Assembly: GCA_041640595.1 (NCBI GenBank)
Contig: JBEPZY010000001.1
Coordinates: forward strand, 288,001-352,000
Origin: Gemmatales bacterium
GTDB taxonomy: Bacteria > Planctomycetota > Planctomycetia > Gemmatales > HRBIN36
DNA: 64,000 nucleotides
Direction: 5' to 3'
The notes beneath the pieces were generated by a model, which did not search any database, had not been told where the DNA came from, and saw nothing but the letters and a program-made list of their open reading frames with translations. Both the position numbers and the translations under genes were made by a program. Below, piece by piece: positions 12,201 to 29,903 of the stretch. Position 1 is the first letter of the stretch; every line of letters begins with the position of its first letter.

Positions 12201-12616
12201 CCAAAGCCGCAGCCACTTCAGCTACGCCGGCCGAAGACGAAGAAATCAAGCGTCGGGTCGAAGAAGCCGGCATGCGGTACGTGATGGAACACGAACGCCA
12301 AGAGGGCCGTCAGCCCCAGGATGTCAGCCGTGAATTCCGCGGCTACGATATTGAGTCCCGGTCGGATTCGGAGGTCCGCTATATCGAGGTGAAATCGCTT
12401 GCGACAACCGGCCCCTGGGAGTTCACGGTCCACGAGTGGCAAGTCGCTGAGCGCCTGGGCGCCCGCTACTGGCTTTATGTGGTGGAGCATGCCCTCACCA
12501 AGCCCCGGTTGCGCCCCTACGATAATCCCGCCGCCCGCTTCAAGCCCAAGCTTGTCATGGGGGTAGTGAAGATGGTGGTGGAAGAATCGGAACAGGGGGG
12601 CGAAAATGACGCCTGA
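9275..12616 (+). CDS. SNF2-family helicase with C-terminal DUF3883-type nuclease domain (operon 1)
   Basis: LLADDPGLGKT, VDEAH, TATPH, NYDLPWNPNRLEQRMGRIHR; C-terminal GYDI..YIEVK..EW. Confidence 0.92.
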   Translation: MIQVGDWVRIDPYPEKAEVFEVRQQGGHVVLGIIFLVSQKAQRMVFTPEELAQRVQRLPKLGERFEQDSLRTREPFVLFLEALRMRLAYTFDPHYAVSVTQVDLLPHQVDAVYGHILPLPRIRFLLADDPGLGKTIMAGLVLKELKVRGAVRRTLLVVPAHLQDQWQREMRDWFREDFVPLRRELLQNLYATDFFERHAQVLVSLDFARQVDVRELLARQSWDLLIVDEAHKLSATRYGQRIFKTQRYQLGEALAPRATHLLLLTATPHKGDDDAYFLLLNLLEPRLFATAEHLKQAARSEGLPFVLRRSKEQVTDLEGRKLFRRREVQSLGITQSEGEKQLYEAVTQYVRRWYAAVSGKTDRKSRNVALALTVLQRRLSSSLFAVRESLRRRGAKLQNLLQEWERRLQENELPEWDEETEQDLAEMTSQEWEGFQERLEGITAARNPEELREELGELKELLRLALEVEKAGEEAKVQELRRVIEERLRHHPDEKLLIFTEFKDTLSALEQKIRSWGFPCVSIHGQMSLGDRIEAERRFRDEVQVMVATDAAGEGINLQFCRLMVNYDLPWNPNRLEQRMGRIHRYGQQRDCYVFNLLYPETREGEVLQRLMEKLERMRERLGDSVYDVIGTLLEGVRLEELLMQAIVQGPSGELERVLDVDLGQRLEQYWQTLRENALAGHYIDLTTVQKNETDSLLRRLVPWDVQRFTQLAVPTVGGQISEDRRQRQVFRLSVPREFLKQHGLQNESFARGLRIAFQRDVARRADAEFFAPGHPLLEALTDHFLNKNRPVQAILVDEQGRKGTLWLYRVRLQDGRSQAVLERLLALFHDLTSGEIREVDPRMVWELASPPDHLDLPPNLPNLLDEASQRTREHVLICLQALQHEAQQRRERECTIKHDWLNRSYTYLIAESQGKLIEYHQRQQAGEDMAVAIRQEEENLKVLLREKDERLKEIEKERQITLLEPELEAVALILPKAAATSATPAEDEEIKRRVEEAGMRYVMEHERQEGRQPQDVSREFRGYDIESRSDSEVRYIEVKSLATTGPWEFTVHEWQVAERLGARYWLYVVEHALTKPRLRPYDNPAARFKPKLVMGVVKMVVEESEQGGENDA

Positions 12617-15600
12617 AGATCGCGTGCGTTTTCTCATTGAAAGGGCGATGCCGCTGCGGGAGTTGTCGGCGGAGGCGCGGCGGGAGAAGGCGATTCGCCA
12701 CGGGCACATCTCCACGCTGCATGTCTGGTGGGCAAGGCGGCCGCTGGTGGTCGCCCGCGCTGCTGTGCTTGGCGCCCTGCTGACCGACGAAGCTGACATC
12801 GCCCCCGATTTCGTCCAGAATCTCTGCCGCTGGGAAGTGCATGATGGCGATGCCGGCGGGCGTTCTCTGCTGAATGAGGCACGGGCGCTTGTGCGCCAGC
12901 GTTTCGGCTCGACGCCCCCGAAAGTGCTGGACTCGTTTGCTGGCGGCGGATCGATCCCGCTGGAGGCTCTGCGGTTAGGTGCCCAGGCCTTCGCCGTCGA
13001 ATACAACCCCGTCGCCTACCTCATCTTGAAGGCGACCATTGAGTTCCCACAACGGTTCAGGCAAGGGATTAGGGATGAGGGGCGAGGGACGAAGGAGGAG
13101 ATGCATCATGAGCATTCGGTCATATCAGGACCTGGCAATTTGGAAAAAGGCGATGCAATTGGTTGTTCAAGTGTATCACCTGACCAGGCGCTTCCCTCGG
13201 GAGGAAATGCACGGTCTGACCAGCCAAATGCGCCGAGCAGCAGTTTCCATACCCACAAACATTGCGGAAGGATGGGGGCGAGGGAGCAGGAAGGAATACA
13301 TCCAATTTCTGCGGATTGCCAGAGGTTCACTTCTGGAACTGGAGACCCTTCTGGCTATCTCCAGAAACCTTCGTTACCTGAGCCAAGAGGATATGCAGGC
13401 AAGACTGGCTCTGGTGGAGGAAATCAGCCGCATGCTCAGTGGGTTGATTGCGAGCCTGAAGAGAGGCATGAGGGCTTAGGGGCAGGGGTCAAATCTTCTC
13501 CCTCATCCCTCACCCCTCACCCCTCGTCCCTCACCCCTGCCCCCTCCCCCCTCATCCCTCACCCCTCATCCCTCACCGACGCTGTTCTTTTTTGGGGCAA
13601 CTGGGTGCTTGAGCAAGCACGAAGGGAATTATCGCCCTTCTATCCCTCTGTCGCCCCTCATCCCTCGCCCCTCACCCCTCATCCCTCGCCCGAAACGCCC
13701 ATCGCCTACATCTGGAGCCGCACCATTCGATGTCCGAACCCCGATTGTGGCTCGGAAATTCCGCTGTTCCGGCAGTTCTGGCTTGCTAGGAAAGGGACGA
13801 GGGATAAGGGACGAGGGACGAGGGATAAGGGACGAGGGGCGAGGAAGGAGATTGCGTTAGCCCCTGTCGTTGATAGAGAGCGAAGGTGCGTCAATTTCAG
13901 AATCGTGCAGCGTCAAGGGGATTCTTGGCAGGTCATCGATGATTCCTCGGAGAGGGATAAGGGACGAGGGATTGGGGGCGAGGAACGAGGGACGAGGAAT
14001 GAGGGACGAGGAATGAGAGACGAGGCGCCTCTTTTATCCCCCAACCCTCACCCCTCACCCCTCAGCCCTCATCCCTCACCCCTCACCCCTCACCCCTCCA
14101 CCCTCATCCCTAACTCCTTTGACCCATCAAAGGGCACCGTCAGCCGCGGGCATGCCGTCTGCCTGGTCTGCAACACCAGCGTTCGGGACTCCTACGTGAA
14201 GGCGGAAGCCCAGGCCGAGCGCATGGGGCATCGCCTCGTCGCCGTCGTGACCACCCGCGGTCGTGGGCATGGCCGCAACTACCGCCTGGCCACCGAAGAA
14301 GACCTCGCCGCCTTCCGCAAGGCCGAGCAAGCCCTGCAAAACCTCCTGCAAACCCCATCCCCTTGGGCTTTCGGGCTCAGTTGGGTGCCCGAGGAGCCAT
14401 CGCCCGGAACTATCGGACAAGGACCTTCGCAGCGGCCGAGTTATGGGATGACTACCTGGGGTAAGTTCTTCAATCCCCGCCAGTTGCTGGCGCTGTGCAC
14501 CTTCGGCAAGTGGGTGCGGGAAGCCTATCGGCAAATCCTGCGGCAAACCGACGACCCCGACTTCGCCAAAGCCGTCGCAACGTATCTGGCGTTTGCGTTG
14601 GATAAACTTGCGAATTGGCTGTCTTGCGTATCCCGGTGGGAAGTAACCTGGGAGATGCCTAAAGAGGCGCTAACTGGTCACAGGCTCGCAATGGTGTTCG
14701 ATTATGCAGAGGGCAACCCGACAACCGGAGATGTTGCTTCCTGGCCAAAAGCGCTGGGGTACCTAGATAGAGGTCTCCGAGCTCTTTCTTGGATGAAAAA
14801 TGTTGGAGCCGTAGTAAAGGGCTCGGCGGCCAGTTTGCCCTTCCCCGACAAGCATTTTGATGCCGTCATCATAGACCCGCCGTATGCCGACAATGTGCCG
14901 TATGCCGACCTTTCGGATTTCTTCTATGTCTGGCTGCGTCGGACAGTGGGCGACCTTTACCCGGAAGCGTTCGGCACCGAACTGGTGCCCAAAGAGGAAG
15001 AGGCGGTGGTCAACCCGGCGCGGTTTGGCGGGGGCAAGAAAGGGGAGGCGGTCGCCCGCCGCCATTACCAGCGGCTGATGCAGAAATCGTTTGCGGAAAT
15101 CTACCGCGTGCTCCAACCCGATGGCATGGCGGTGGTGATGTTCACCCACCGTTCGACCGAGGCCTGGGAACGCCTGATGCTGAGCCTCCTGGAGGCGGGG
15201 TTGTACCCGACCGCTTCCTGGCCGGTGCACACGGAGATGGAGGCCTCGACGCATCAGCGCGGCAAAGGAGCGATCCAGAGCACGATCCTGATGGCGTGTC
15301 GCCGCCGTCCGGAGAATGCCGGGGTCGGCTGGTACTCTCAGGTACGGGACGACCTCGAGCGGGTAATCCGGGAGCGGCTGGAAGCGTTCTGGCGAGCGGG
15401 CATCCGCGGGGCGGATTTCTTCGTTTCGGCCATCGGGCCGGCCGTCGGGGTCTTCGGCAAGTATCGCAAGGTCATGCACCCGGACGGCCGGGAAGTCACC
15501 GTCAGCGATCTGCTGGACGAAGCCCGGTCGCTGGTAACCCGGTTTGCCCTGGAACAATTACGCCTGTCCACGCTGGATGCTCCGACGCGCTTTTATGTGC

Positions 15601-16130
15601 TTTACCGGTGGGCCTACGGCGGGGCCGAGCTTTCCTTTGATGAAGCCAACAAACTCGCCAAGAGCGTCGGCGCGGAACTCGATGCCCTGGCCGGCGAGCA
15701 TCACCTGGTGGAACGCCGACAGGACAAGGTGCAGACGCCCGCCTTCGCCCGGCGGTTCCAGAACCTCGACTTTTGCAAACGCCTGCAGCAGGCGCTGGAT
15801 GATGGCCAGTTGCCACAGTTGCCCGAGATCGATCAGGTGCACCTGTTGCTGTACCTGTGGCGCAAAGGCGAGCGGGAAAATATCTCCGCCGTGCTCGGAC
15901 GTGCCGGCGTGATGAGCGAAGACCATCCGCTGTGGCGAACCGCCCAGGCACTTCTGGAAGTGCAGCAGAACGACCAGAAAGCCGACGAAATCGGCGAAGA
16001 GGTTACCGTCCTGGCGCAATTGCTGGGGAGCAAACGCGGTCTGTTACGCGAGGTCGAGCAGACCCACACCACCGCCTTGCAGCTGCAATTTTTCGACGAC
16101 ACCGTAACCCCCCGCCGCCGCAGACGCTGA
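12606..16130 (+). CDS. DUF1156 adenine DNA methyltransferase (operon 1) with large in-frame insertions
   Basis: HISTLHVWWARRPL, DSFAGGG (motif I), CPNPDC/CLVC Zn ribbon, DPPY (motif IV), YADLSDFFYVW. Confidence 0.9.
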   Translation: MTPEDRVRFLIERAMPLRELSAEARREKAIRHGHISTLHVWWARRPLVVARAAVLGALLTDEADIAPDFVQNLCRWEVHDGDAGGRSLLNEARALVRQRFGSTPPKVLDSFAGGGSIPLEALRLGAQAFAVEYNPVAYLILKATIEFPQRFRQGIRDEGRGTKEEMHHEHSVISGPGNLEKGDAIGCSSVSPDQALPSGGNARSDQPNAPSSSFHTHKHCGRMGAREQEGIHPISADCQRFTSGTGDPSGYLQKPSLPEPRGYAGKTGSGGGNQPHAQWVDCEPEERHEGLGAGVKSSPSSLTPHPSSLTPAPSPLIPHPSSLTDAVLFWGNWVLEQARRELSPFYPSVAPHPSPLTPHPSPETPIAYIWSRTIRCPNPDCGSEIPLFRQFWLARKGTRDKGRGTRDKGRGARKEIALAPVVDRERRCVNFRIVQRQGDSWQVIDDSSERDKGRGIGGEERGTRNEGRGMRDEAPLLSPNPHPSPLSPHPSPLTPHPSTLIPNSFDPSKGTVSRGHAVCLVCNTSVRDSYVKAEAQAERMGHRLVAVVTTRGRGHGRNYRLATEEDLAAFRKAEQALQNLLQTPSPWAFGLSWVPEEPSPGTIGQGPSQRPSYGMTTWGKFFNPRQLLALCTFGKWVREAYRQILRQTDDPDFAKAVATYLAFALDKLANWLSCVSRWEVTWEMPKEALTGHRLAMVFDYAEGNPTTGDVASWPKALGYLDRGLRALSWMKNVGAVVKGSAASLPFPDKHFDAVIIDPPYADNVPYADLSDFFYVWLRRTVGDLYPEAFGTELVPKEEEAVVNPARFGGGKKGEAVARRHYQRLMQKSFAEIYRVLQPDGMAVVMFTHRSTEAWERLMLSLLEAGLYPTASWPVHTEMEASTHQRGKGAIQSTILMACRRRPENAGVGWYSQVRDDLERVIRERLEAFWRAGIRGADFFVSAIGPAVGVFGKYRKVMHPDGREVTVSDLLDEARSLVTRFALEQLRLSTLDAPTRFYVLYRWAYGGAELSFDEANKLAKSVGAELDALAGEHHLVERRQDKVQTPAFARRFQNLDFCKRLQQALDDGQLPQLPEIDQVHLLLYLWRKGERENISAVLGRAGVMSEDHPLWRTAQALLEVQQNDQKADEIGEEVTVLAQLLGSKRGLLREVEQTHTTALQLQFFDDTVTPRRRRR
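13064..14112. repeat. Complementary tracts of 7-bp repeats (GGGAYGA / TCAYCCC type)
   Basis: G-rich ~13064-13095, 13793-13844, 13953-14025; C-rich ~13498-13576, 13651-13692, 14036-14112. Confidence 0.9.
13108..13479 (+). CDS. Four-helix-bundle protein (23S rRNA intervening-sequence protein / Avd-like), nested in +1 frame inside the methylase
   Basis: SYQDLAIWKKAM, FPREEMHGLTSQMRRAAVSIPTNIAEG, FLRIARGSLLELET; AGGAGGAG RBS 7 nt upstream. Confidence 0.92.
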   Translation: MSIRSYQDLAIWKKAMQLVVQVYHLTRRFPREEMHGLTSQMRRAAVSIPTNIAEGWGRGSRKEYIQFLRIARGSLLELETLLAISRNLRYLSQEDMQARLALVEEISRMLSGLIASLKRGMRA

Positions 16131-16159
16131 ACCCTGTCCACCGCGACACCCCAACACGA

Positions 16160-16385
16160 GCAATCACCGCGAAAAACCTTAGTGCTCCCTGGTGCCTGAG
16201 CGGTTATAATACCGCAACAGGAAGGTACGGAACGCACGAAGGAACACCAACGAAATATGCGGTATCCCTTTGTGTCTTCGTGCCCTGCTGGTTAAAACTC
16301 AATTACGAAGACACCAGGACGCGAAGAAACCTCGAGAAAACCCTTCGTGTTGCGTGGTGTCTTTGTGTCCTGGCGGTTACAACCC
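16160..16385. repeat. Degenerate intergenic inverted-repeat cluster
   Basis: Alternating CACGAAG/GAAGACAC and CTTYGTGTC...GGTTA tracts between the methylase and ATPase genes. Confidence 0.5.
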
Positions 16386-16406
16386 TTCAGCGACGGGGGA
16401 AGAAGC

Positions 16407-19031
16407 ATGGCGAGGCAGTCAGCTCTGCGGGTCTGGGAGGTGTGCGAACCGCATCGGGATGTGTTTTCGCGTGATCCGGACCCATCGCTGTTCGCTATCA
16501 GTCTGCACCACGTGATGCGAGGCTCGGCGGATCGGGATTACACTGACCCGGAGCGCTTCTTCGCCCGGACCTGCATGACGCGAGCCCTGTCGAACTTGTT
16601 GCAGCGAGTGCTCGGTCGGCTGGCGGGTCAGGGTCGCGGGGCACCGGTGTTGCGGCTGGAAACGCCATTCGGCGGCGGCAAAACCCACACCATGACAGCC
16701 CTCTGGCATATCGCCCGGTACCCGGAAGTCTGCAGCGAGCAGGAATCGCTCCGACCCATCCTGGAGGCGTTGAACCTGCGCAGCGTTCCGAACGATCTCC
16801 GCGTGGCCGTGCTCGATGGCCGGGGACTTGACGCCCGCGAACGACGTACCGACGACGGATTGACCGTCCGCACCCTGTGGGGCGAGCTGGCGTATCAGCT
16901 CGGCGGTCGGACGGGTTATGAGATGCTGGCCGATGCCGACCAGACGCGGACCTCCCCCGGCGGGGCCTTGCTCACCGAGTTGCTCCGCCGCTATCAACCC
17001 GCGCTCATCCTTATGGACGAAGTGCTCGACTACCTCATCAAGGCCCGGGCGGTGTCGGTGGGATCGAGCAATCTGATGGAACAGACCGGCACCTTCCTGG
17101 GAGAACTGACCTCAGCCGTCAGCGCGGTCCCCCAGAGTGCGCTGGTGCTAGCGTTGCCCGCCTCCTCGCTGGAAATCCCCGCCGAGAACCAGGAATCCGC
17201 CGAACGGCTCTTCCAGTACGCCAAGAAAGTGCTGGGACGAATGGAACTGGTGGAGACGCCCGTCGCTCAGGATGAAGTGTTCGAGGTGCTGCGCCGTCGC
17301 CTGTTTCAACGGGTCGCCGAAGAACGCGACCGCAAAAAAGCTGTCGAGGCTTTCCGCGCTTACTACGAAGAGTATGCCCGCTTTTTCCCCGATCGGTTGC
17401 GGTCGCCGGATTATCGCGAGCGCATGCTCCAGGCCTATCCCTTCCATCCCGAACTGGTGGATTTGCTCTATGAGCGGTGGGGTCCGCATCCGCAGTTTCA
17501 GCGTACCCGCGGAGCGTTGCGGCTGCTGGCGCTGGTGCTGCGGCGGATCTGGCAGCAACGACCGGGTTCGGCGCTGTTGATTCAGCCCCACCATATTGAT
17601 CTCCATGACCGCCATATTCGCGGCGAAGTGGTGCGGCTGCTGGACAGCAGTTGGGAAGCTATTGTCACGGGCGATGTCCTCCGACGGGCGGAAGAACTGG
17701 AACGGCAATTGGGCGGCGAGTACAGTCGCGAACAACTGGCCCGAGGAACTGCCAGTGCCGCTTTTGTGTACAGCATCTCCGCCGCCACCCGCGATGTCGG
17801 CGCCACCGAAGAGGAAATCCGCACCGCTTTGCTCCGCCCGTCGATCAACCCGGCGATGGTCTCCGAGGTGCTCGGACGCTTACGCGAACGACTCTGGTAT
17901 CTTCGTTACCGCGACCACCGCTATTTCTTCACAGCCAAACCGAACCTGAACAAGGTCATCCTGGACTTTGAGAACGAAGTTACCGACGAGCAGGTCGAGA
18001 AAGCCCTGCGGGAGCGTATCACCCAGTGCACTGGCAAGGCTGGCGAGGGGTTTCAACTGGTGATCGCTCCGGCAGAGCCCAAACTCGTTCCCGACCGGGC
18101 TCAACCGACTCTGGTTGTCCTCCCGCCGGATGTCCACCAGCCGCAGCAGTGGATGGAACAAGCGGTTCAGGCCGCCGAAAGCGGTATCCGCGTCAACAAA
18201 AACATGCTCATCTTCCTCGTGCCGGAACCGACGCAAATCTCCGCTTTGCGATCCGCCATTCGTCGCTGGCTCGCCCTCAAAGCCGTCTCCGACTCCCATT
18301 CCTTCAAAGAAATGGACAGCGATGACCGGGAACAGGTGAAGTTGCAACTCAAGGACAAGGAAGCGGAACTGGAGGCCCTCCTCCGCCGAACCTACCAGGA
18401 GATTTACCGTCCCAGCAACGGCAGTGTCAAGCGCATCACCGGCATCGGCCCCGAAACCATCAAGGCCAAAACACTCGCTGCGTTCGTCGAGGAAACGCTG
18501 AGAAATAAAGGCGAGCTGGTGGATAGCGTCGCCCCGGAGTATCTCAAAGATGTGCTGCGGATCGACCAGCAACAGCAGGTACCGCTGGCACAGGTGAGCA
18601 ACCTCTTCACCGGCGTAACCAGCCAACCGGTGCTCAGGAATCCCGAGGAGGCGGTTCGCCGGACCGTTCAGCAGGGCGTGCAGCAGGGGCTGTTCGCTGT
18701 GCGTGTCGGCGAGCAGGTTTACTCGCGTCAGGAAGTGCCCGATGACATCCTGAAACGCAAGGACGTGGTGCTCGTCCCGCCACCTGATGATAAGAAGCAA
18801 CCACCTCCGCCGCCGGCCCAGCCTAAGCCCCTCACCCTGCGGGTGCGAACCAGCGCCAGCGTGTTCTATCCGATTACGGTTGTGGCTAAGCAGTTGCAGC
18901 AGTTGAATGACGCGACGATTGTGCTCGAAGTCCGCGACCCGTCGGGCAAACTGTCCACCATGCAGGCGGAGATCGACAAACTCGTGCGCGACTACGGTTG
19001 CACCTGTGAGTGGGTCTCATCTACTGAGTGA
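16407..19031 (+). CDS. DUF499 family ATPase (operon 1)
   Basis: TPFGGGKTH Walker A, LILMDE Walker B, YPFHPEL, FQRTRG; ATG start at 16407 chosen. Confidence 0.9.
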   Translation: MARQSALRVWEVCEPHRDVFSRDPDPSLFAISLHHVMRGSADRDYTDPERFFARTCMTRALSNLLQRVLGRLAGQGRGAPVLRLETPFGGGKTHTMTALWHIARYPEVCSEQESLRPILEALNLRSVPNDLRVAVLDGRGLDARERRTDDGLTVRTLWGELAYQLGGRTGYEMLADADQTRTSPGGALLTELLRRYQPALILMDEVLDYLIKARAVSVGSSNLMEQTGTFLGELTSAVSAVPQSALVLALPASSLEIPAENQESAERLFQYAKKVLGRMELVETPVAQDEVFEVLRRRLFQRVAEERDRKKAVEAFRAYYEEYARFFPDRLRSPDYRERMLQAYPFHPELVDLLYERWGPHPQFQRTRGALRLLALVLRRIWQQRPGSALLIQPHHIDLHDRHIRGEVVRLLDSSWEAIVTGDVLRRAEELERQLGGEYSREQLARGTASAAFVYSISAATRDVGATEEEIRTALLRPSINPAMVSEVLGRLRERLWYLRYRDHRYFFTAKPNLNKVILDFENEVTDEQVEKALRERITQCTGKAGEGFQLVIAPAEPKLVPDRAQPTLVVLPPDVHQPQQWMEQAVQAAESGIRVNKNMLIFLVPEPTQISALRSAIRRWLALKAVSDSHSFKEMDSDDREQVKLQLKDKEAELEALLRRTYQEIYRPSNGSVKRITGIGPETIKAKTLAAFVEETLRNKGELVDSVAPEYLKDVLRIDQQQQVPLAQVSNLFTGVTSQPVLRNPEEAVRRTVQQGVQQGLFAVRVGEQVYSRQEVPDDILKRKDVVLVPPPDDKKQPPPPPAQPKPLTLRVRTSASVFYPITVVAKQLQQLNDATIVLEVRDPSGKLSTMQAEIDKLVRDYGCTCEWVSSTE

Positions 19032-19127: not shown

Positions 19128-19555
19128 AGTCTGATTCATCCCCAGTTTTTGATTGGGCCGGCTATTTCGCAGCACCTGACGAGAGAATGGTTTGTCGAAT
19201 GTCCTATTTTCCAGGGCCTGAGGCTCGCCCGTTCGCATCATACCAGCGTTCGGCCAAGGCGATCGGGTCTAACCGGGTGCCTGGCAGTCGGCAGCCTTTT
19301 CCAAAAACCGAAGATGCTCAAACAGATCTTGCATCTCCTGCGATCTGTGCGGTGCTTCGAGACAAGGAGACCTTTTCAAAAACCTGAAGAGGCTCTGCAT
19401 CTTCCAAGTGCCCCGAAAAACAGCGTCAGGATTGACGCCACCCCGACCGACACCGTGTCTTCCATGCTCCAAGTCTCCGCCTAAGAACAGACCATCCGAC
19501 GTAACCGTTATCATTCAGACGCCTTACCTCCAGCGGGGCTCCCGTCAAAACCGGG

Positions 19556-20041
19556 GATAAGTCAGAACTGGAGCCTTCAGGTAATCGCGGACGGGGTAGG
19601 GAACGCCGATAATGCGGATTTAGAGTCTGGGATAAGTCAGAACTGGGCCATCAGGCAATCGCGGACGCGGTGGGGAACGCCGATAGTGCGGATTTAGAGT
19701 CTGAGATAAGTCAGAACAGGGGCCTTCAGGTAATCGCGGGCGGGGTAGGGAACGCCGGTAGTGCGGATTTAGAGTCTGAGATAAGTCAGAACTGGGGCCT
19801 TCAGGTAATCGCGGACGCGGTGGGGAACGCCGATAGTGCGGATTTAGAGTCTGGGATAAGTCAGAACTGGGGCCATCAGGCAATCGCGGACGGGGTAGGG
19901 AACGCCGATAGTGCGGATTTGGAGTCTGAGATAAGTCAGAACTGGGGCCTTCAGGTAATCGCGGACGGGGTAGGGAACGCCGATAGTGCGGATTTAGAGT
20001 CTGAGAGAAGTCAGAACTGGGGCCTTCAGGTAATCGCGGAC
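19556..20041. repeat. 75-bp tandem repeat, ~6.5 copies
   Basis: Units GATAAGTCAGAACTGGGG... start at 19556, 19631, 19705, 19780, 19855, 19930, 20005. Confidence 0.95.
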
Positions 20042-20111: not shown

Positions 20112-20134
20112 ACTACCCCCGGCAGGACTCGAAC
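20112..20134. repeat. att core: duplicated 3' end of tRNA-Arg
   Basis: ACTACCCCCGGCAGGACTCGAAC identical to 52512-52534. Confidence 0.93.
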
Positions 20135-20545
20135 ATCCTGCGAATTTCCCAGGAAAATGCGAGGTTGAGGATTCCGGCGCAGCAAAATCCGCAGCACTTA
20201 GCCGCAGTTTCGAGGAAGAAACCAAGCATAACTGTCCCACTGCCGCAAGCCGCAAGCCTGCCCAGCCGCAAGCGTCTGAACTTGGTAACCGATTGGCCGA
20301 GGCACTGCTGATTATCGCATCACTATCCGAAAGCGAACGCCAGTTATTGATCCGGTTGCTGGAAAGTTTCGGCAAAACCAAGCCATAACCGGCCGGACCC
20401 ATCCCTAGTTTCGGCTGAAAGCTCCGCTGGAACGCTAACTGGCTCTTTCTAACTTACTCATTATCTGCCGGACTTATCCCCAGTTTTGACTGAGCGTCCC
20501 CAGGACATAAGTCGTTGGGATGGCGTTTATTTCTCCGGATGGCCA

Positions 20546-20772
20546 GTTTTCGGGGCACATGGAGGACGGTAAACGACACTGCTTATAAGACACGCACGTG
20601 CGTTAAACCCGGTTTTTGGGGCACAGGGAGGGCAGTGAACTCAGGCTCCAGATAATAATCCTTGCCACGAGCGGACGTTTTTCGGGGTATGCGAAGGACG
20701 GCGAACTTGTTAAAGGTCCTGGTGGTCCGCCAACTTCATCTCATTTTTCGGGGTACATGGAGGACGGTGAAC
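20546..20772. CRISPR. Degenerate CRISPR-like mini-array, 4 repeats / 3 spacers, no cas genes in window
   Basis: 29-30-bp repeats ~GTTTTCGGGGYACATGGAGGACGGTGAAC at 20546, 20612, 20677, 20743; unique spacers of 37, 36 and 36 bp. Confidence 0.65.
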
Positions 20773-21735
20773 CCAGCCGAGTTTCTTCGGGGCTTACAAA
20801 AAGGCTCGCCGAACGCCAAGCATACGGTCGGCTGCAATCGGCTTGACCGAACATTGCAACGATGTGAGCGCCCTACCCGAGGTCGGAAAATGGAACTTTT
20901 CGTTAGCCATTTTGTGGTCAGGTGTTGCGAATTAGCTTGCCCCCGCCACAACTGGCGATAGGTCAGTGCTTGCCCACCTACTGGGAGAAACTGCTGCGGC
21001 GATTGCGACTCCGCAAGGTCCCCGCATCCGTCCACATCCTCCGCAGTTCGACAGAGCTGGCAATACACGGCGTTGATCGGCGAGTGAAAAGTTCTGCCTT
21101 ATCCTGCCGCTTCGGACAACGGGCAACCGAAACATCGCCCGCTTCGTTGTCGGTTGCCACACCGCACCTGCGAGACCGGCAGCAGCGGCATGCTCCATCG
21201 AGCCATCGTCCGCTCCGGTGGGAACTGCTAGTCTATGCATGGATTAGCCGTTTGTGCAGGCTAGAGCGGCAAAACGGCGGTGGCGAAACCACGAAGGAAC
21301 GCAAGGCGGGGAAGCAGCAGCGCGAAGAATTTCCAGCACAGCCAGGCTCAGCGGACAAGGACCGTGCAAGCCGAGAACAAGTTCCTTACGCAGATCGAGA
21401 TCGAGGATGAATACTGCGACTCAGCGGCCAAACAACGCGCATGCTGGGAGAGCGTCCATCCAGGAAAGAGCACAGCGTCAGGTGCGGCGCCATAATTTCG
21501 ACGGTGCCCGATTCTCCTCGCTCTCATTGTGCGATACGCCAGTGTGAAGTGCGGCGTTATGAATACAACACACACTTAGGCCGTGCATTGGCCATGACCG
21601 GCGAAGTATAATTGACCCGCTTCGATCCGCTCCGTGGCATCAAGTACGCCGGCAAATTCCAAACGTGAACGTGCCGGCACGATTGACAGGGGAAGGACAT
21701 CACTCGTGGGAAGCACGTCTGGGGGGAGCTGCGAT

Positions 21736-24700
21736 ATGCAAGGGGAGCGTAGCGGTGAGAAGACTCTGAAACCCGACGATGTTCTTCAGGGGGATTTCTG
21801 GCCTGAGCCTGTACGCATTGTGAGGCTGGTCCGGTTCGGCGAACGCACTAAGATTGAAGCCGTCGGTACTAAGACCAGGCAATTTTACGAACACATTCTC
21901 AGAGCGCAAGACCTGGGACAGGTGCGAGTGGTTACCGAAACGGGACGGGATTACGGCGGACGTGGCGAAGCTTTTTTCCTGGTCATGGAAGCACACCGCA
22001 TCCGCTCGGCTTATCAATTTGATCCGCTCTTTGCCGTCACCGTTTCCCAGGTGGATCCCCTGCCGCACCAGATCGAGGCAGTCTATCACTACATCCTGCG
22101 TAATCCGCGCATTCGCTTCCTGTTAGCCGATGATCCTGGGGCAGGCAAAACCATAATGACGGGTTTGCTGCTCAAGGAACTGAAATACCGCGGACTGGTA
22201 CAGTGGACGCTCATCGTGGTGCCGGGTCATTTGCGAGACCAGTGGCTGAGGGAAATGAAAGAACGTTTTGGTGAAACCTTTACCGCAGTTGACCGCAACA
22301 TCATCAATGCCACCTGGGGGCGCAACGTCTGGCAAGAGCAGCCCCAGATTATCACCTCCATGGACTTTGCCAAACAGAGCGATGTGATGGCGACTCTGAG
22401 CGAGGTACACTGGGATTTGGTGATCGTGGATGAAGCCCATAAGATGGCTGCCTACCGTTATGGCGAAAAAACCGCACGCACTGAACGCTACCGTTTGGGC
22501 GAACTCCTATCGCGGAAAAGCAACTTTTTGCTGTTTCTAACTGCTACCCCTCATCGCGGTGATCCCGAGAACTTCCTGCTGTTCCTTGACCTGCTTCAGC
22601 CCGGTTTCTTCGCGAACGCCGACCTGCTTCAGGAATCCGTGCGCAACAAGGATAATCCCCTCTACCTTCGCCGGTTGAAGGAGGACCTTAAAGATTTTCA
22701 GGGGCGACCGCTCTTTCCGCCCCGTCGTGTAACCACGAAACCGTACCGGCTGAACGACGAGGAAAAGCGGCTTTACAACGCTGTGACCGAATACGTGGAA
22801 AAGTCGTACAACAAGGCCCTGGCAGCGGAAAAGCGAAATGTGGCGTTCGCTCTGTTGATTCTGCAGCGGCGGTTGGCATCCAGCGTCCGGGCAGTGCGTC
22901 GCTCACTGGAACGCCGTAAACAGCGACTGCAAGAGTTGCTCCAGTTGGGCAAATGGCTCGCCGAACGCGACAGCATTGACGAGGAAGAGCTCGAAGACGC
23001 ACCCGAAGCCGAACGCCTTAAGCAGGAGGAAGAGTTGCTGGAGCGGCTCACCGCGGCCGAAACCCGTGAGGAATTGCAGGAGGAGATCGCCAACCTGGAT
23101 CAGTTAATTCGCCTTGCCCGTGACGCCGAACGCCACGGTATCGAAACCAAGCTCAACGAGCTACGCAAGGTAATGGAAGACGAACATATCCAGCTCAGCG
23201 GCGAAAAACTCCTTGTTTTTACCGAATCACGCGAGACGCTGGAATATCTGGCGGAGAAACTCAAGGAGTGGGGCTATACCGTAAGCACTCTGCACGGTGG
23301 TATGGACCTGAATCAGCGCATTCGTACCGAGCATGAGTTCCGCGAACGAGCGCAGGTGATGGTATGCACTGAAGCGGGCGGGGAAGGCATCAACCTGCAG
23401 TTTTGCTCGCTGATGGTCAATTACGACATCCCTTGGAACCCCAACCGTCTGGAACAGCGTATGGGGCGGATTCATCGCTACGGCCAGCAAAAAGAGGTGC
23501 ACATCTATAACCTGGTCGCCGCCGATACCCGTGAAGGCAAGGTACTGGAGGCGCTGTTTCGCAAGCTGGAACGGATTCAGGAAGCGCTGGGCAGCGACCG
23601 CGTTTTCGACGTCATCGGCGAAGTGATGCCGGGACGCAGCCTGCAAGAACTGATCGTCGAAGCGATCGCCAACCGGCGCACCCTGGAGGAAATCGTGGCC
23701 GCTATCGAAGCGGTGCCCGATGAAGAAGCGGTGCGTAAGGCACGCGAAGCCGTACTGGAAGGTTTGGCCACCCGGCACATTGACCTGCAAAGCGTGCTGG
23801 GCGAAGAGCGACGCGCCCGCGAGAACCGTCTGGTGCCGGAATACATTGAGCGCTTTTTCGAACGTGCCTGTCAGTTTTTGAAAATCCCTCTGGAACGCCG
23901 CCGTGATGGACTCTGGCGCGTCCCCAGCGTGCCCTACGAAATTCGCCATGTTTCACAGGAATTTCGGCACCGCTTCGGTGAGGTTTTCCGGGAATACAGC
24001 AAAGTGGCGTTTGACAAAAAGATGGCTCGTGAGCAGAACGCGGTCCTGGTAGCGCCAGCCCATCCATTGCTGGAGGCGATCATCGAACGCCTGCTCACCG
24101 ATTGCGCCGACGATGTTCGCCGCGGAGCCGTATTTACCGACCCCGACGGTCGGCTTAACGGTTGGCTCTTCTTTCTGGAAGGGGAAATCCGCGACGGCAC
24201 CAACCAGGTGGCCGGCAAGCATGTTTTTGCTCTCTACCGCTCCGTTGCCGGCGATCTGCGGCTCGTCAACCCATCCATTCTCTGGGACCTGAAACCGGAT
24301 GGCGAACGGCAGGAGATGCACCCCCAGCTAGGCGAGGAAGAAGTTATCGCCTACGCCATTGAACACGTTCTGGAGCCGTATCGTGCGGAATTGCTGAAAA
24401 GGCGTGAGTGGGATGCCGCTATCAAGCGTAAATACGGCGTGCGTTCGCTGGAGCAAATGATTCTGGACTCGGAGGCGAAACTGATTGACTACGAAACTCG
24501 CCGGGCCAAAGGCGAAAACTTTCCCGACGTGGAAATACTCAATGAGCAGCGGAAGAAGGAAGAGCTTCAGGCACGCAAACAGGCGCTGGAAGAACAGATC
24601 CGCCGTCAGACCAGTCTGCTGCCGGCCAGCCCGAAGGTGCTGGGTGTGGTGCGCGTCCTGCCGCAAGTCGCTACCGATGACGACATGCGATCCGATGCCG

Positions 24701-25065
24701 AGATCGAAGCCATCGGCATGCAGGTGGCCATGCAGCGCGAGCGGGAACGCGGACGCTTGCCCGAGGATGTTTCGGCACAAAACCTGGGCTACGACATTCG
24801 CTCGACCAGCCCCGCGGGCGAAGTGCGCTACATTGAAGTCAAAGCCCGCGCCACCACCGGCCCCATAGCGCTCACCCCGAACGAGTGGCTCATGGCGCAA
24901 CGCCTCGGCAATGACTACTGGCTTTATATCGTCGCGCATGCTGCCAGCGAGCCACACCTGCATACTATTCAAAACCCCGCCGCTAAATTGCGCCCCGAAG
25001 AACAGGTCGAAACCGTGCGCTATGTCATAAAAAACTGGCAGGAGGTAAGCGATGAAGCCACGTGA
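21736..25065 (+). CDS. SNF2-family helicase with DUF3883-type domain (operon 2)
   Basis: LLADDPGAGKT, VDEAH, NYDIPWNPNRLEQRMGRIHR, GYDIRS..YIEVK..NEW; paralog of 9275-12616; start uncertain. Confidence 0.92.
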   Translation: MQGERSGEKTLKPDDVLQGDFWPEPVRIVRLVRFGERTKIEAVGTKTRQFYEHILRAQDLGQVRVVTETGRDYGGRGEAFFLVMEAHRIRSAYQFDPLFAVTVSQVDPLPHQIEAVYHYILRNPRIRFLLADDPGAGKTIMTGLLLKELKYRGLVQWTLIVVPGHLRDQWLREMKERFGETFTAVDRNIINATWGRNVWQEQPQIITSMDFAKQSDVMATLSEVHWDLVIVDEAHKMAAYRYGEKTARTERYRLGELLSRKSNFLLFLTATPHRGDPENFLLFLDLLQPGFFANADLLQESVRNKDNPLYLRRLKEDLKDFQGRPLFPPRRVTTKPYRLNDEEKRLYNAVTEYVEKSYNKALAAEKRNVAFALLILQRRLASSVRAVRRSLERRKQRLQELLQLGKWLAERDSIDEEELEDAPEAERLKQEEELLERLTAAETREELQEEIANLDQLIRLARDAERHGIETKLNELRKVMEDEHIQLSGEKLLVFTESRETLEYLAEKLKEWGYTVSTLHGGMDLNQRIRTEHEFRERAQVMVCTEAGGEGINLQFCSLMVNYDIPWNPNRLEQRMGRIHRYGQQKEVHIYNLVAADTREGKVLEALFRKLERIQEALGSDRVFDVIGEVMPGRSLQELIVEAIANRRTLEEIVAAIEAVPDEEAVRKAREAVLEGLATRHIDLQSVLGEERRARENRLVPEYIERFFERACQFLKIPLERRRDGLWRVPSVPYEIRHVSQEFRHRFGEVFREYSKVAFDKKMAREQNAVLVAPAHPLLEAIIERLLTDCADDVRRGAVFTDPDGRLNGWLFFLEGEIRDGTNQVAGKHVFALYRSVAGDLRLVNPSILWDLKPDGERQEMHPQLGEEEVIAYAIEHVLEPYRAELLKRREWDAAIKRKYGVRSLEQMILDSEAKLIDYETRRAKGENFPDVEILNEQRKKEELQARKQALEEQIRRQTSLLPASPKVLGVVRVLPQVATDDDMRSDAEIEAIGMQVAMQRERERGRLPEDVSAQNLGYDIRSTSPAGEVRYIEVKARATTGPIALTPNEWLMAQRLGNDYWLYIVAHAASEPHLHTIQNPAAKLRPEEQVETVRYVIKNWQEVSDEAT

Positions 25066-25423
25066 GATTCCCCAATCGGTGCGGCTGGCCTTGGAGGAAC
25101 TCAAAGCGTCGCTCGTCGAACTCTATGGCGAGCGGCTGGAGGGGGTCTATCTCTACGGCTCGTACGCGCGAGGCGATTTCACCGAAGATTCGGACATAGA
25201 TGTGCTTATCGTTCTCCAGGGCGATGTCAAGCCAGGAGCCGAGATTACCAGGCTCAGCCCGCTTCTGTCGGAAATATGTTTGCGCCATGATGTGCTCATA
25301 AGCACATATCCTGTGCCAGCAACATGCCTAAGGGAGCGGCAAAGTCCTTTGTTCATCAACATACGTCGTGAGGGCGTGCCGATGGGCGAGTTTCTCGAAA
25401 GAACCAACCATGCGGGAGCGTGA
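25052..25423 (+). CDS. Minimal nucleotidyltransferase (MNT)
   Basis: LYGSYARGDFTEDSDIDVLIV, C-terminal IRREG. Confidence 0.88.
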   Translation: MKPREIPQSVRLALEELKASLVELYGERLEGVYLYGSYARGDFTEDSDIDVLIVLQGDVKPGAEITRLSPLLSEICLRHDVLISTYPVPATCLRERQSPLFINIRREGVPMGEFLERTNHAGA

Positions 25424-25835
25424 GGTGGTGCGCATAGTTGCTGAGCGGCTGAAAAGCGAAGGTGCCCGGCACCTTCAGGTGCGTTACGCTCGTGAACCTG
25501 GCCCGGATATCGAGGCCGTGTTGCCTAACTCCCATCGTCAGTTGTTTATCGAAGCCAAGGGGGACGTAAAATCGGCCGAATCGGCGCTCGGTGTTGCCCT
25601 CTACCAGATCCTTTGCCGCTATGATGGCCAGGCCGTTTGCGCAATTGCCGTGCCCTTCTCCAGTCGTTATCAAGACCTTCTGAGAAAAGTCCTGGCTGGC
25701 CTTGGGCAGTTGCGCGTGCATGTGCTCCTGGTCAGGGAGGCCGAAGTCTGGCATCTTCCGCCCAACGCAAAAGGATTTCTGCCGACCAAACCTTCTTCGC
25801 TCGTCGAGGCTCTGGAAAATGAGCAAAGACATTAA
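25410..25835 (+). CDS. Small putative PD-(D/E)xK nuclease-fold protein
   Basis: GPDIEA...LFIEAKG motif; overlaps both neighbours. Confidence 0.6.
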
Positions 25836-27393
25836 GCTGCGGCTCATTGAAGTAGATTTCCCGTTGAGGAAGGTTTCCGAAGAATCGGTGCGGGAAAAGA
25901 ACATTCGCCACGGGCACATTTCCACGCTGCACATCTGGTGGGCCCGCCGACCGCTGGCCGCTTCCCGTGCTACCGCACTGGCGGCACTTCTGCCCGATGA
26001 CCACAACCGCCGCGACGAGCTGCTCCGGCTCATCGAGGAGCTTGCTCCCTGGGAAGCCGTTTCCGGTAAAGCTTCGAGGAGCCAATCCCTTCAGAAAGCC
26101 CGCGAGCTTCTCCGCGAAGCCTTTGGCGGACGTGCTCCGCGGGTGCTCGATTGCTTCGCCGGTGGCGGGGCCATTCCCCTCGAAGCGCTGCGCCTGGGCT
26201 GCGAAACCTATGCCCTCGACTACAACCCCGTCGCCGTCCTTATCAACAAAGCTGTCCTCGAATTCCCGCAGAAGTTCGGACGACCTGACCAGGTCACAAC
26301 CGTACCGCTCCCGCCTGCTTCGCAAAACCAGTCGCGGACCGATGGGCGACTTCTCGACGTGGAAGTCGAGCCTGTCGAAAATCCCCTGCTTCAAGCGGTC
26401 TCCGCCTGGGGAGCGTGGGTGTTAGAGGAAGCACGCAGGGAATTAGAGCCATTCTACCCGAAGGACCACGATGGTTCGATTCCGGTCGGCTACATCTGGG
26501 CGAGGACCTTGCCGTGTCAGAATCCCGCCTGCGGCGCCGAAATCCCGCTCATGCGCCAGACCTGGCTGGCCAAAAAAGATAAGAGGAAGGTTGCACTCAA
26601 GCTCATCCCGAACCGGGGAGCACGGCGCGTGGAGGTCGAAATCGTCGGGGCGGACGGCCGTCCGATTGATTTTGACCCCGAAGAGGGCACCGTCTCGCGC
26701 GCTCACGTGCGCTGCCCGCTCTGCGGCGGCACGTTTGACGACAAGACGACCCGCCGCCTCTTCCGCGAGGGCAAATCCGGCCAGCGTCTGATGGCGGTCG
26801 TGCTCCACCATCCGAAGCGCACAGGCAAGACCTACCGCCTGCCCAGCAAACGCGATCTGGAAGCCTACCACGCCGCCGAAACCGCACTGGAACACAAACG
26901 GGCCCGCCTCCGCGAAGAATGGGGCATCGAACCCGTGCCGGATGAGCCGTTGCCGCCGCTGGAGACGCTCGGCTTCCGTGTCCAGCGCTATGGTCTCACC
27001 CGCTGGGGCGACCTGTTCAACCCGCGGCAGAAGCTGGCGCTGATCACCTTCGCCGAGAAAGTCCGCCAGGCCCACGCCCAAATTCTCTCCCAAGGCGCCG
27101 AGCCGGAGTTCGCCAAAGCGGTGGCAACGTATCTGGCGTTGGTTGTCGATGAATTAGCTCGCTTTACCTCGGTCCTCAACCCTTGGAAAGTCGATGCCGA
27201 AGCTATTGTTCATGTTTTTGGCAGGCAAGCACTACCTATGCTCTGGGATCACTGCGAAAACGTTCCCGTCGGCTCGCACGGTGGAACATGGGAGCACCGC
27301 CTTACGGAAATAATTGCAGTGGCTGAAGCGCTATACGTACATGAAAGGTCCAACCTCAGTGGCATCGCTGCGGGAGAGCGAACGACTCAGTGA
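25819..27393 (+). CDS. DUF1156 methyltransferase, N-terminal part (operon 2)
   Basis: [31 protein letters not shown]; stops before DPPY. Confidence 0.88.
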
Positions 27394-27481
27394 AGGTACG
27401 CAAAGCCAGATTCACCAGCTGGAAATGGTCGCCAGCGAAGTGCGACGGCGATACCGAGCAGAGACTCGATTGGAACAATAA
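27341..27481 (+). pseudogene. 46-aa ORF, possible truncated MNT N-terminus
   Basis: MKGPTSV...QLEMVASEVRRRYRAETRLEQ*; weak resemblance to the helix preceding the MNT GS motif; not in the ORF track. Confidence 0.35.
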
Positions 27482-27491
27482 AGGAGAGAGA

Positions 27492-27788
27492 ATGAAAACA
27501 CGGAACGAAATTCTGGCGATCTTGAACGAACACCGGCAGGTTCTGCAGGAGCGCTACGGGGTCGAGGAACTGGCCCTTTTTGGTTCCTATGCCCGAGGGG
27601 AGCAGTGTCCCGTGAGCGATGTGGACATCTTGGTGCGGGTCCGTCGGCCCATCGGACTCAAGTTCTTTGAACTCTGGGATTACCTGGAGGAAATTCTGGA
27701 CTTGAAAGTGGACCTCCTGACGCCGGAGGCCCTTCAACAGAAGCCCGCCCTGTGGGAGAACGTTCAGGAAGACCTCGTCTATGTCTAA
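27492..27788 (+). CDS. MNT antitoxin
   Basis: LFGSYARGEQCPVSDVDILV, KVDLLT; AAGGAG RBS. Confidence 0.9.
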   Translation: MKTRNEILAILNEHRQVLQERYGVEELALFGSYARGEQCPVSDVDILVRVRRPIGLKFFELWDYLEEILDLKVDLLTPEALQQKPALWENVQEDLVYV

Positions 27789-28128
27789 GCGTGATTGGAC
27801 TCTCTTTTTGCAGGATATGCTGGACATCATCGGTAAGATCGGGCAGTACACGAGCGGGATGAGTTTTCAGGAATTTCTCCAAGACAGCCGAACCCAAGAT
27901 GCAGTAGTCAGGAACCTCGAAGTCCTGGGAGAAGCAGCGAGGCGGATTCCCCCCCACATCCAAGAGCGCTACCAGGAGATTCCGTGGGCCCAAATTGTGG
28001 GGCTGAGGAACCGGCTCATCCACGGTTACTTCCTCGTGGACTATGGCATTGTCTGGGAGATCGTCCAGAACGAACTGTCACCGTTGCGTGAAAAATTGGA
28101 ACAGATCGCGCGAGAGGTATCCGGATGA
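27781..28128 (+). CDS. HEPN/DUF86 (HepT-like) RNase toxin
   Basis: DAVVRNLEVLGEA, IPW, RNRLIHGY (intact Rx4HxY). Confidence 0.92.
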   Translation: MSKRDWTLFLQDMLDIIGKIGQYTSGMSFQEFLQDSRTQDAVVRNLEVLGEAARRIPPHIQERYQEIPWAQIVGLRNRLIHGYFLVDYGIVWEIVQNELSPLREKLEQIAREVSG

Positions 28129-28418
28129 CAAGCCTTGAGGAGATCAAAACGATACTTCAGCAACACAAAGAAGAGCTGAGAGCAAAGTATAAGGTCAAGG
28201 AGATAGGCGTTTTTGGCTCATACGTCCGGGGTCAACAGAGAAAGCAAAGCGACATAGATATCCTGGTGGAGTTTGAAGTGGTTCCTGGGCTGCTGAAATT
28301 TATAGAACTTGAAGATTACCTGTCCGAACTGCTTGGAGTCAAAGTTGACCTTGTCCGAAAGAGTTCTATCAGGGAGGAACTGCGGGACACAATCCTTCAA
28401 GAGGTGGTGGTGCTTTGA
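28125..28418 (+). CDS. MNT antitoxin
   Basis: VFGSYVRGQQRKQSDIDILVEF, KVDLV. Confidence 0.9.
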   Translation: MTSLEEIKTILQQHKEELRAKYKVKEIGVFGSYVRGQQRKQSDIDILVEFEVVPGLLKFIELEDYLSELLGVKVDLVRKSSIREELRDTILQEVVVL

Positions 28419-28648
28419 AGCGGCAATATCTTCTGTTTATCCAAGACATCCTGGAGGCGATACAGAAAGGGGAGGAATTCGCTGGCGCCATCATCCCCTG
28501 GAGCAGCATGGCAAAAATGAGGGATAGATTGGCTCATGGTTATTGGGCTGTGGATGATGAGATAGTGCGGAAAATTCGCAAAGAAGAGTTGCCGGAACTC
28601 AAGGCGAAAATCATGGAGGTCTATGAAAATGAACAGAAGCGTTCCTGA
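28415..28648 (+). pseudogene. HEPN/DUF86 toxin with internal deletion
   Basis: 77 aa; keeps QDILEAI and IPW..RDRLAHGY but lacks the central DAVVRN..GEA segment of 27781-28128. Confidence 0.75.
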
Positions 28649-29903
28649 AGTATTACAAGGCACCGCCACCGTCCTCCCCTGGCCCGACAACTATTTCGAT
28701 GCCGTGCTCACCGACCCGCCGTATTACGACAACGTGCCCTATAGCGACCTTTCGGACTTTTTCTACGTCTGGCTCAAGCGCACCGTTGGCGACCTGTACC
28801 CAGAGCTGTTTGCCACCCCGCTTACGCCAAAGTCCGAGGAAATGGTGGCCGATGCCAGCAAAGCAGGTGGTATGGAAAACGCCATGCGTCGGTTCGAGGA
28901 GATGCTTACCCAGGCGTTCCGCGAAATCCACCGCGTGCTCAAGCCCGATGGCATCGCCGTCATCGTCTTCGCCCACAAGACCACTGAAGCCTGGGAAACC
29001 GTGATCAACGCCCTGTTAGAGGCTGGCCTCTACATGACCGCCTCCTGGCCCATTCACACCGAGATGCAGGCGCGGTTGCGCGCCCAGGAATCCGCGGCGC
29101 TGGCCTCCTCCATCTACATGGTCTGTCGCAAGCGCACCACGAGCGAAGTGGGCGAGTATCCCAAAGTGCGACGCGAAATTGAAGAGCGCGTGCGGCAGAA
29201 ACTCACGCAGTTCTGGGATGAGGGCATTCGCGGGGCGGACTTTTTCATGAGTGCCATCGGCCCGGCGGTGGAAGCGTTCGGCAAATACGTCCGCGTGGAG
29301 AAACTTTCCGGAGAACCGGTCACCGTGGCCGAACTGCTCGAATACGTCCGCAAGGTGGTCAGCGAGTTTGCCCTGGAGCGTATCCTGACGCCTGCAGCCC
29401 ATCCAACAGGAGCCGGGATGGGAATCGGCGGAGTGGATGCCCCGACCCGCTTTTATCTTCTGTATCGGTGGACTTACAATCACGCGCGCGTCCATTTCGA
29501 CGAGGCGCGCAAATTGGCGCAGGGAGCGGGTGTGGAACTGACCAGCCTGTGGGAGGCCGGCGGATTGGTGGAAAAGGACAAAGAGTATGTCCGTCTGCCC
29601 ATGCCGACGGAGCGTGCCCGCCATGCCCACTTTGTCAAAAGGACGCATTTCGCTACCATGATAGATGCTCTGCACTACGCCGCCTGGCTATGGGAGCGAA
29701 ACGACCAGACCAGGCTGCAGGAGCACCTGGCGGCCACTTACGGCGACAACGAGATCTTCTGGCAGGTGGCCCAGGCGATTGCGGAGGTGTTACCCCAGAA
29801 CGACAAGGAAAAACAATTGTTGCAGGGCCTGCTGTACGGGCGCAGAAGCCTTCAGTCAGCTCGTGATAAGCAGGCAGGTAGCTTATTTGGTGGAGCACCA
29901 TGA
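28623..29903 (+). CDS. DUF1156 methyltransferase, C-terminal part (operon 2)
   Basis: TDPPYYDNVPYSDLSDFFYVW; collinear with the C-half of 12606-16130; GGAGGT just upstream of ATG AAA ATG. Confidence 0.88.
   Translation: MKMNRSVPEVLQGTATVLPWPDNYFDAVLTDPPYYDNVPYSDLSDFFYVWLKRTVGDLYPELFATPLTPKSEEMVADASKAGGMENAMRRFEEMLTQAFREIHRVLKPDGIAVIVFAHKTTEAWETVINALLEAGLYMTASWPIHTEMQARLRAQESAALASSIYMVCRKRTTSEVGEYPKVRREIEERVRQKLTQFWDEGIRGADFFMSAIGPAVEAFGKYVRVEKLSGEPVTVAELLEYVRKVVSEFALERILTPAAHPTGAGMGIGGVDAPTRFYLLYRWTYNHARVHFDEARKLAQGAGVELTSLWEAGGLVEKDKEYVRLPMPTERARHAHFVKRTHFATMIDALHYAAWLWERNDQTRLQEHLAATYGDNEIFWQVAQAIAEVLPQNDKEKQLLQGLLYGRRSLQSARDKQAGSLFGGAP

Follow-up and report, generated by a model that had tools for sequence, protein, structure and literature searches.

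A Repeat-Spacer Array at the End of a Genomic Island

The window, i.e., the whole 64,000-nucleotide stretch of Gemmatales DNA that was analyzed (positions 288001-352000 of contig C1), includes a 32-kb island bounded by an att core and by an integrase encoded at 51034-52545. Just inside the left att lies a regular succession of repeats and spacers, which a first-pass annotation had described as a CRISPR-like mini-array located about 410 bp from the att. The distance measured from the att core to the first repeat is 412 bp, and no Cas family was found among the 45 window ORFs scanned. The products include DUF1559 proteins, typical of planctomycetes, in keeping with a planctomycete host. The features of this region are as follows:

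19132-19565, minus strand: neighboring element copy, outside the att, with an unrelated insert, 35 bp long, at site A, plus another unit, probably of the 37-bp type
20112-20134, no strand: att core, 23 bp, identical to 52512-52534, the 3' end of a tRNA-Arg gene (context only)
20468-20966, plus strand: element copy carrying the array, 499 bp versus the usual ~305 bp, owing to three 66-bp units
20546-20574, minus strand: R1, copy of element site A (model positions 79-108), putative leader-distal repeat
20575-20611, minus strand: spacer 1 (S1), 37 bp, probably the oldest, variant of host type I-B spacers 112 and 129
20612-20640, minus strand: R2
20641-20676, minus strand: spacer 2 (S2), 36 bp, source not found
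20677-20706, minus strand: R3, with three differences from R4 that are polymorphic among populations
20707-20742, minus strand: spacer 3 (S3), 36 bp, probably the newest, source not found
20743-20772, minus strand: R4, which runs into the right half of the element, putative leader-proximal repeat
20771-20777, minus strand: leader-repeat junction mimic GCTGG/GT (the slash marks the junction), with the same bases as in the host type I-B array

The array is borne out in number, length, and position, with four repeats of 29-30 bp and three spacers of 37, 36, and 36 bp, the GGGG cores of the repeats being spaced by exactly 66, 66, and 66 bp. The spacers are also unique, as claimed: mutual homology, which had been named as one of the observations that would speak against an array, is absent (pairwise local scores of 8-12). 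The repeats are degenerate, with 3-10 pairwise mismatches per 30 nt, and the GTTTT start attributed to them does not extend to R4, which starts with ATTTT. A proposed fifth copy at 20781 is in fact ordinary element sequence, 8 bp past R4, that is also present in uninterrupted copies of the element (see below). Elsewhere in the 4.45-Mb genome, a single match within 7 mismatches of R1 or R4 was found, in the neighboring element copy. Among Rfam models, tRNA alone passes the gathering threshold, and nothing meaningful appears around the array at E ≤ 10.

The Array Interrupts a Dispersed MITE-Like Element

While these array features stand, the first-pass annotation overlooked the structure that hosts them, which is a copy (20468-20966) of a dispersed element bounded by terminal inverted repeats (TIRs). 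When the genome was searched with the array region, both flanks matched one multicopy sequence of ~305 bp, non-coding and with TIRs of ~20 bp, which fits the MITE criteria of being short, non-coding, multicopy, and TIR-bounded. The 30 profile matches correspond to 20 element loci, and there are 28 matches to the terminal motif. We nonetheless call the element MITE-like rather than MITE, because visual inspection of the flanking DNA of 15 copies revealed no consistent target-site duplication and no transposase partner was identified. The element was found in 0 of the 14 family genomes searched, which are 66-96% complete.

Six copies, of 296-305 bp and with 66-88% mutual identity, are uninterrupted. 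Empty copies are exemplified by C8:175559-175862 and by the type at C9:102433. The window copy aligns to positions 1-109 of the element model and then again from 80 to 305, at an offset of ~+196; the repeat of the array is thus model segment 79-108, named site A. By manual reading of the profile alignments, in which the empty copies are paralogues, site A is single in 14 of the 19 loci that cover it, duplicated in three, and overlapped by units with other borders in two; no empty orthologue of the window locus was seen. In the neighboring copy, the site-A pair is degraded (17/32 identical) and was placed through the model offsets 0, 65, and 131. A further candidate, at C3:569600, was rejected as a site-A event.

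Copies of the element are spread over the chromosome. As one of them lies just outside the att and none is found at the paralogous island end on contig C4 of the host genome (G000), the position of the array inside the att is probably incidental, the island end having simply received an element copy. In 60 relatives, nothing but matches to the att end was recovered for the region.

The Repeat Is Unlike Those of the Host CRISPR Systems

The host encodes a type I-B system on contig C8, with cas1b (above cut-off), cas2, cas4, cas3, cas5, and cas7, adjoined by Cmr genes. Its array is made up of 30-bp repeats and 341 spacers, the latter measuring 36-37 bp in 273 cases, and the unit size of the window array (29-30 plus 36-37 bp) has this same geometry. 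On contig C1, a second locus combines genes for Cas2, a reverse transcriptase, and Cas1 with an array of 246 spacers, in which the repeat measures 37 bp. Two Cas6 matches lie at C5:156811-157164 and C23:7-126, on contigs other than those of the cas1 loci and arrays. Additionally, a six-repeat array with a different 30-bp repeat is present at C20:1210-1581, on a 4.7-kb contig that is possibly mis-binned or part of a further system.

The first-pass annotation proposed a comparison with host repeats, and its result does not favor kinship: R1-R4 agree with the I-B repeat at 8-10 of 30 positions, including 3-4 of the 8 bases of the crRNA handle, with the C20 repeat at 7-9 positions, and with the 37-bp repeat at 10 positions at most (ungapped). 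The idea, also raised there, of a mini-array carried by a mobile element and borrowing host Cas proteins is therefore not sustained, since the repeat is unlike that of the host and derives from a chromosome-wide element. No exact match to the repeat pattern was found in viral contigs or in species genomes, from which the host's own genome is perhaps absent. Neither does the locus resemble a solitary repeat unit (RNA anti-CRISPR), defined by a single host-like repeat, as four copies are present and are not host-like. Elsewhere, an orphan one-spacer unit at C3:328836-328932 has a repeat identical to that of the I-B array at 26 of 30 positions and a spacer matching contig C15 at 91%; judged on these similarities, it would be a better candidate than the window array for a usable solitary mini-array. 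Units of 30 + 36 bp are also found right beside the I-B array, in the interval separating its leader from the cas genes, at C8:21408, 21525, and 24708.

Spacer-Sized Duplications Occur Genome-Wide

Unrelated local duplications were scanned throughout the genome with arrays and N runs masked. They number 36, 104, 65, 34, and 17 at periods 65 to 69, respectively, and 28-71 per period at 72-76 (23 at 76), against a background of 0-11 per period at 45-64 and 2-14 at 77-86. After clustering, 255 units remain at periods 65-69 and 204 at 72-76, i.e., ~460 candidate units genome-wide, some tandem repeats and copied loci being included in these counts. The two size classes match both resident arrays, with their 30-bp and 37-bp repeats. 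Another peak, at 87-94 bp, was rejected as a source of spacer units, as it consists of REP-like palindromes. Multi-spacer chains at periods 65-69 number 45, of which five, including the window array, have three spacers; control periods yielded eight chains at 55-59 (two with three spacers) and two at 77-81. At several loci (C1:228872, C2:374688, C4:6795, and C4:7910, as well as C2:407700 and C3:561426) the insert is identical, indicating that unit-bearing DNA was copied after insertion.

Both period classes are also present, at lower density, in a congener (G003, L032-L051) that is ~73% identical and has a type I-B Cas1. In a 297-kb sample of this one genome, with contigs chosen to include its two cas1 loci, periods 65-69 or 73-75 account for 13 of 14 duplications, two of these 13 being real arrays, and 11 non-array units were counted. 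The tendency is thus not confined to one species.

The borders of the units carry a trace of the I-B leader-repeat junction. Where R4 meets its flank, the minus strand reads GCTGG/GT, seven bases identical to the junction of the C8 array, and the far end is similar. GG/GT occurs at 44 of the 255 ectopic units versus 6.6 in shifted controls, a ~7-fold enrichment, and the full seven-base word at 2 of 255 versus 0.22 in the control. With a motif derived exclusively from 149 ectopic sites, the true leader-proximal repeat obtains a score of 10.9 and R4 one of 4.8 on the minus strand; as the 99th and 99.9th percentiles of the background are 4.0 and 7.0, R4 stands at about the 99th percentile. In all seven sister copies examined, site A is outside the top six sites for this motif, which consequently does not explain the hotspot described below. 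An earlier motif search, on 34 units, gave noise, and the right half of the element shows no extended likeness to the I-B leader (local score 17).

One Spacer Is Related to Spacers of the Type I-B Array

S1 aligns to spacers 112 and 129 (numbered from the leader) of the C8 I-B array, with scores of 42 and 37, the best of 100 shuffles reaching 27. The similarity covers 34 aligned bases, 30 of them identical, with a 3-nt indel, and concerns the same strand and the same PAM-proximal end. When 459 inserts were compared with the 592 canonical spacers, two scored at least 34, both of the 30-bp class and against I-B spacers, versus 0 per shuffle. As read from contig C15, the I-B PAM is 5'-CCN (29 of its 36 protospacers), and its side is the very end that S1 has in common with spacers 112 and 129. 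Judging from these alignments, S1 was presumably excised next to this same PAM, out of a variant of the sequence that these two spacers target. The best host-spacer score of S2, 26, is inside the shuffle range (maximum 28).

The first-pass annotation had also called for a search with the spacers. It yielded no protospacer of S1-S3 beyond chance level in phages and plasmids (E 3-9), no match of the S1 pattern in viral contigs, no match of the three spacers to C15, and, in metagenomes, just two conspecific copies of the locus itself. C15 (L021, 9585 bp), a small element binned with the host genome, is matched by 36 type I-B spacers, with CCN as the PAM, as well as by a few ectopic inserts. Four such inserts match it with scores of 35-53 (null maximum 36) and ~91% identity; two of these are duplicates of a single event, and another, C3:328836, which is among the best matches, belongs to the unit with the host-like repeat described above and is not off-target. 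C15 has a weak match to family B polymerases, a matrixin-like gene, and no PHROG match, and no relatives were found in viral contigs; it is possibly an undescribed virus or plasmid of the host.

Inserts Recur at Site A

Six inserts are located at site A, i.e., three in the window array, one in the neighboring copy, and two at C3:609981, and all six are mutually unrelated. Among the 10 first 30-bp events in the element family, the 3-2-2 pattern has a P of ~0.001 and one bin of three a P of 0.036; these are modest statistics, based on uniform, hand-assigned bins.

Within the window array, one position is a T in both R3 and R4, as opposed to the C of R1, R2, and all six uninterrupted copies, and R3 and R4 also have in common an extra T in a T run. 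These one or two characters fit growth at the leader-like right end, in which S1 would have entered first and S3 last. No allele of the locus with 0, 1, or 2 spacers, such as would attest stepwise growth directly, was seen in eight runs and two contigs.

Populations Carry the Same Three Spacers

Population variation was followed in 8 of the 20 runs that hold the stretch, the possible source run being left out. In seven of them a single contig spans the array, which is covered in pieces in X17, and no joint is present in any of the eight. All three spacers are retained in 8/8 runs and in the two metagenome contigs, although one of these contigs, L019, shares variants with X3 and is perhaps not independent, and assembled contigs lose rare variants. 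Counted by hand among the variants listed, variable sites affect at least 7 of 118 repeat bases, at least 4 of 109 spacer bases, and at least 40 of 734 flank bases (Fisher p of 0.54 and 0.87).

Some of the alleles make the repeats more alike: 20571 A>G, found in 8/8 runs, brings R1 nearer to R4, and alleles at 20691, 20692, and 20702 (X14, X17) do the same for R3. Such convergence is what would be expected of copies that were identical at birth and are now drifting. On the minus strand, which would be that of a transcript, the repeats share no hairpin (z of 0.2-0.9), and no sigma-70-like promoter was found, in what is a weak test. Contigs of the one RNA run included, X8, cover the entire stretch evenly, a pattern uninformative as to transcription. 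Because the same three spacers are found in other populations and polymorphism is at a similar level in repeats and flanks, the array is probably old, neutral, and inert, i.e., a neutral scar that is one of the 45 multi-spacer chains of its size class.

Origin of the Array

Site A is single in sister copies of the element, and the window copy is longer than these by three repeat-spacer units of I-B size. Very probably, this is a natural three-spacer neo-CRISPR array, generated within a MITE-like element by the host type I-B Cas1-Cas2 (with Cas4), for which cas1b, cas2, and cas4 are encoded at C8. The first-pass annotation had mentioned a neo-array born of an ectopic process as one of two options, and this one is upheld by the empty homologous sites, the I-B geometry, the leader-junction mimic, and the homology of S1 to I-B spacers. 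Cas1-Cas2 (with Cas4) would have integrated three spacers successively at an off-target site that mimics the leader-repeat junction, each integration presumably duplicating the 30-bp target. The array would have been extended at its right, leader-like end in the order S1, S2, S3, from repeat copies identical at birth that have drifted since, and would now persist as an unprocessed, neutral relic. In a wider version of this scenario, the element would act as a mobile array seed, its built-in leader-repeat mimic being hit repeatedly by the type I-B integrase and extended in a polarized manner. New arrays with genuine anti-virus spacers would thereby arise on mobile DNA, and some of them, perhaps including the window array, which is fixed in all populations seen, would be transcribed and used by host Cas proteins; we consider this unlikely.

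The same origin could also have been followed by a gain of function, the neo-array being maintained because the element provides its transcription and the host Cas6/Cascade or Cmr its processing or use. Conservation of the three spacers in all eight runs and both contigs would agree with this, as would the location of the variants listed, none of which is inside S1 or S2 save at border base 20611; Cas6 is encoded in the genome, and two host spacers would have their target element in common with S1. However, the handle is like that of the host at just 3-4 of 8 bases, neither a shared minus-strand hairpin nor a sigma-70-like promoter was detected (the latter in a weak test), the repeats vary as the flanks do, and the deficit of variants in the spacers is not significant, making a kept function quite improbable.

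Very unlikely, too, is the insertion of 36-37-bp fragments by a process independent of Cas proteins, such as a transposase or integrase with a 30-bp stagger, or repair-mediated capture. The units do sit in a mobile-looking element, and their target is overall little like the host repeat. Such a process would, however, have to account for two size classes that match both resident arrays exactly, for the ~7-fold enrichment of the leader-junction word, and for S1, whose target and PAM-side end are also those of real spacers.

Highly improbable is a purpose-built mini-array of the island, or a decayed donor array, that would use host Cas proteins against competing elements. Its presence in an att-bounded island, where no cas gene is close by, and its unique, CRISPR-sized spacers are compatible with this, but the repeat is unlike those of the host and homologous to the flanking element. 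Furthermore, viral and species collections, perhaps without the host's own genome, gave no exact match to the repeat pattern, the region went undetected in 60 relatives save for att-end matches, and the paralogous island end lacks the element; the empty sister copies largely refute this possibility. Lastly, phased protein-binding sites (iterons) or a decayed tandem repeat might be evoked by degenerate motifs in a regular 66-bp phase near an island end, but this is hardly credible for mutually unrelated spacers, one of them homologous to CRISPR spacers, and a motif that is single-copy in sister elements.

Relation to Known Systems

A neo-CRISPR array of this kind has counterparts in the laboratory. 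Nivala, Shipman and Church reportedly described in 2018 the non-canonical integration of spacers by Cas1-Cas2, leading to neo-CRISPR loci in E. coli. Such loci are reported to arise by off-target integration in E. coli type I-E strains overproducing Cas1-Cas2 (10.1101/148544, PMC7054753, PMC6698737, PMC9456107, PMC11394691), and the natural evidence, from two other species, is termed circumstantial (10.1101/148544). By these accounts, the window array resembles the E. coli loci in its spacer-sized inserts and in the repeat-length duplication of a non-CRISPR DNA that partly resembles the leader-repeat junction. It differs from them in being natural and fixed in wild populations, without overproduction, in having I-B geometry, and in the three successive events at one site, other copies of the element having been hit independently.

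The Pyrococcus furiosus Cas1-Cas2 complex is described as having preferred non-CRISPR sites in vitro, with a 30-bp spacing (PMC6698737). Compared with that description, the sites seen here have the same 30-bp spacing of attacks, G/C borders, few positionally conserved bases, and one recurrent preferred site, the difference being that the P. furiosus sites were obtained in vitro on plasmids, whereas a chromosomal record with captured, foreign-looking spacers is found here. Virus- and MGE-borne mini-arrays and solitary repeat units (Racr) are described as having repeats identical to those of the host and one or two spacers against related viruses (PMC11656645). By that description, the window array is similar in its few spacers, its lack of cas genes, and its location on an integrated element, and is set apart by repeats that derive from the element, are identical to those of the host at 8-10 of 30 positions, and are drifting. 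In the literature surveyed, "ectopic acquisition" mostly refers to mid-array insertion. No account of natural multi-spacer neo-arrays in dispersed elements was found in the literature searched, which covered few subscription papers.

Off-target integration has been proposed as a route for the origin of CRISPR arrays, with support that, in the literature consulted, comes mainly from the laboratory. The present locus would provide a natural, multi-step case of array birth with internal controls, namely empty sister copies, sisters with one or two different spacers at site A, a leader-junction mimic, and S1, which shares its target with a real array. Array birth thereby becomes testable with a 300-bp substrate. 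The locus also calls for caution: a solitary mini-array found on an island is not necessarily a guide cassette.

Other Features of the Island and Its Surroundings

The same island contains a second three-spacer chain of 30-bp repeats, at 40960-41190, with a one-spacer relative at 8755. Positions 19556-20040 hold a 75-bp tandem repeat in which each period is one 37 + 38 repeat-insert unit, with seven heads and six near-identical inserts. Its counterpart in L019 (reverse 3340-3460) has two heads and one insert, and a paralogue adjoining tRNA-Arg(CCT) at C3:427819-427944 has one head and no insert. This repeat is likely a 37-bp-class off-target unit that was amplified in tandem afterwards. The att is furthermore flanked by HmaABC-like defense blocks, at 9275-19031 and 21634-32545; in the second of these, the methylase is found in two ORFs (25702-27393 and 28623-29903), with nucleotidyltransferase and HepT-like genes between them.
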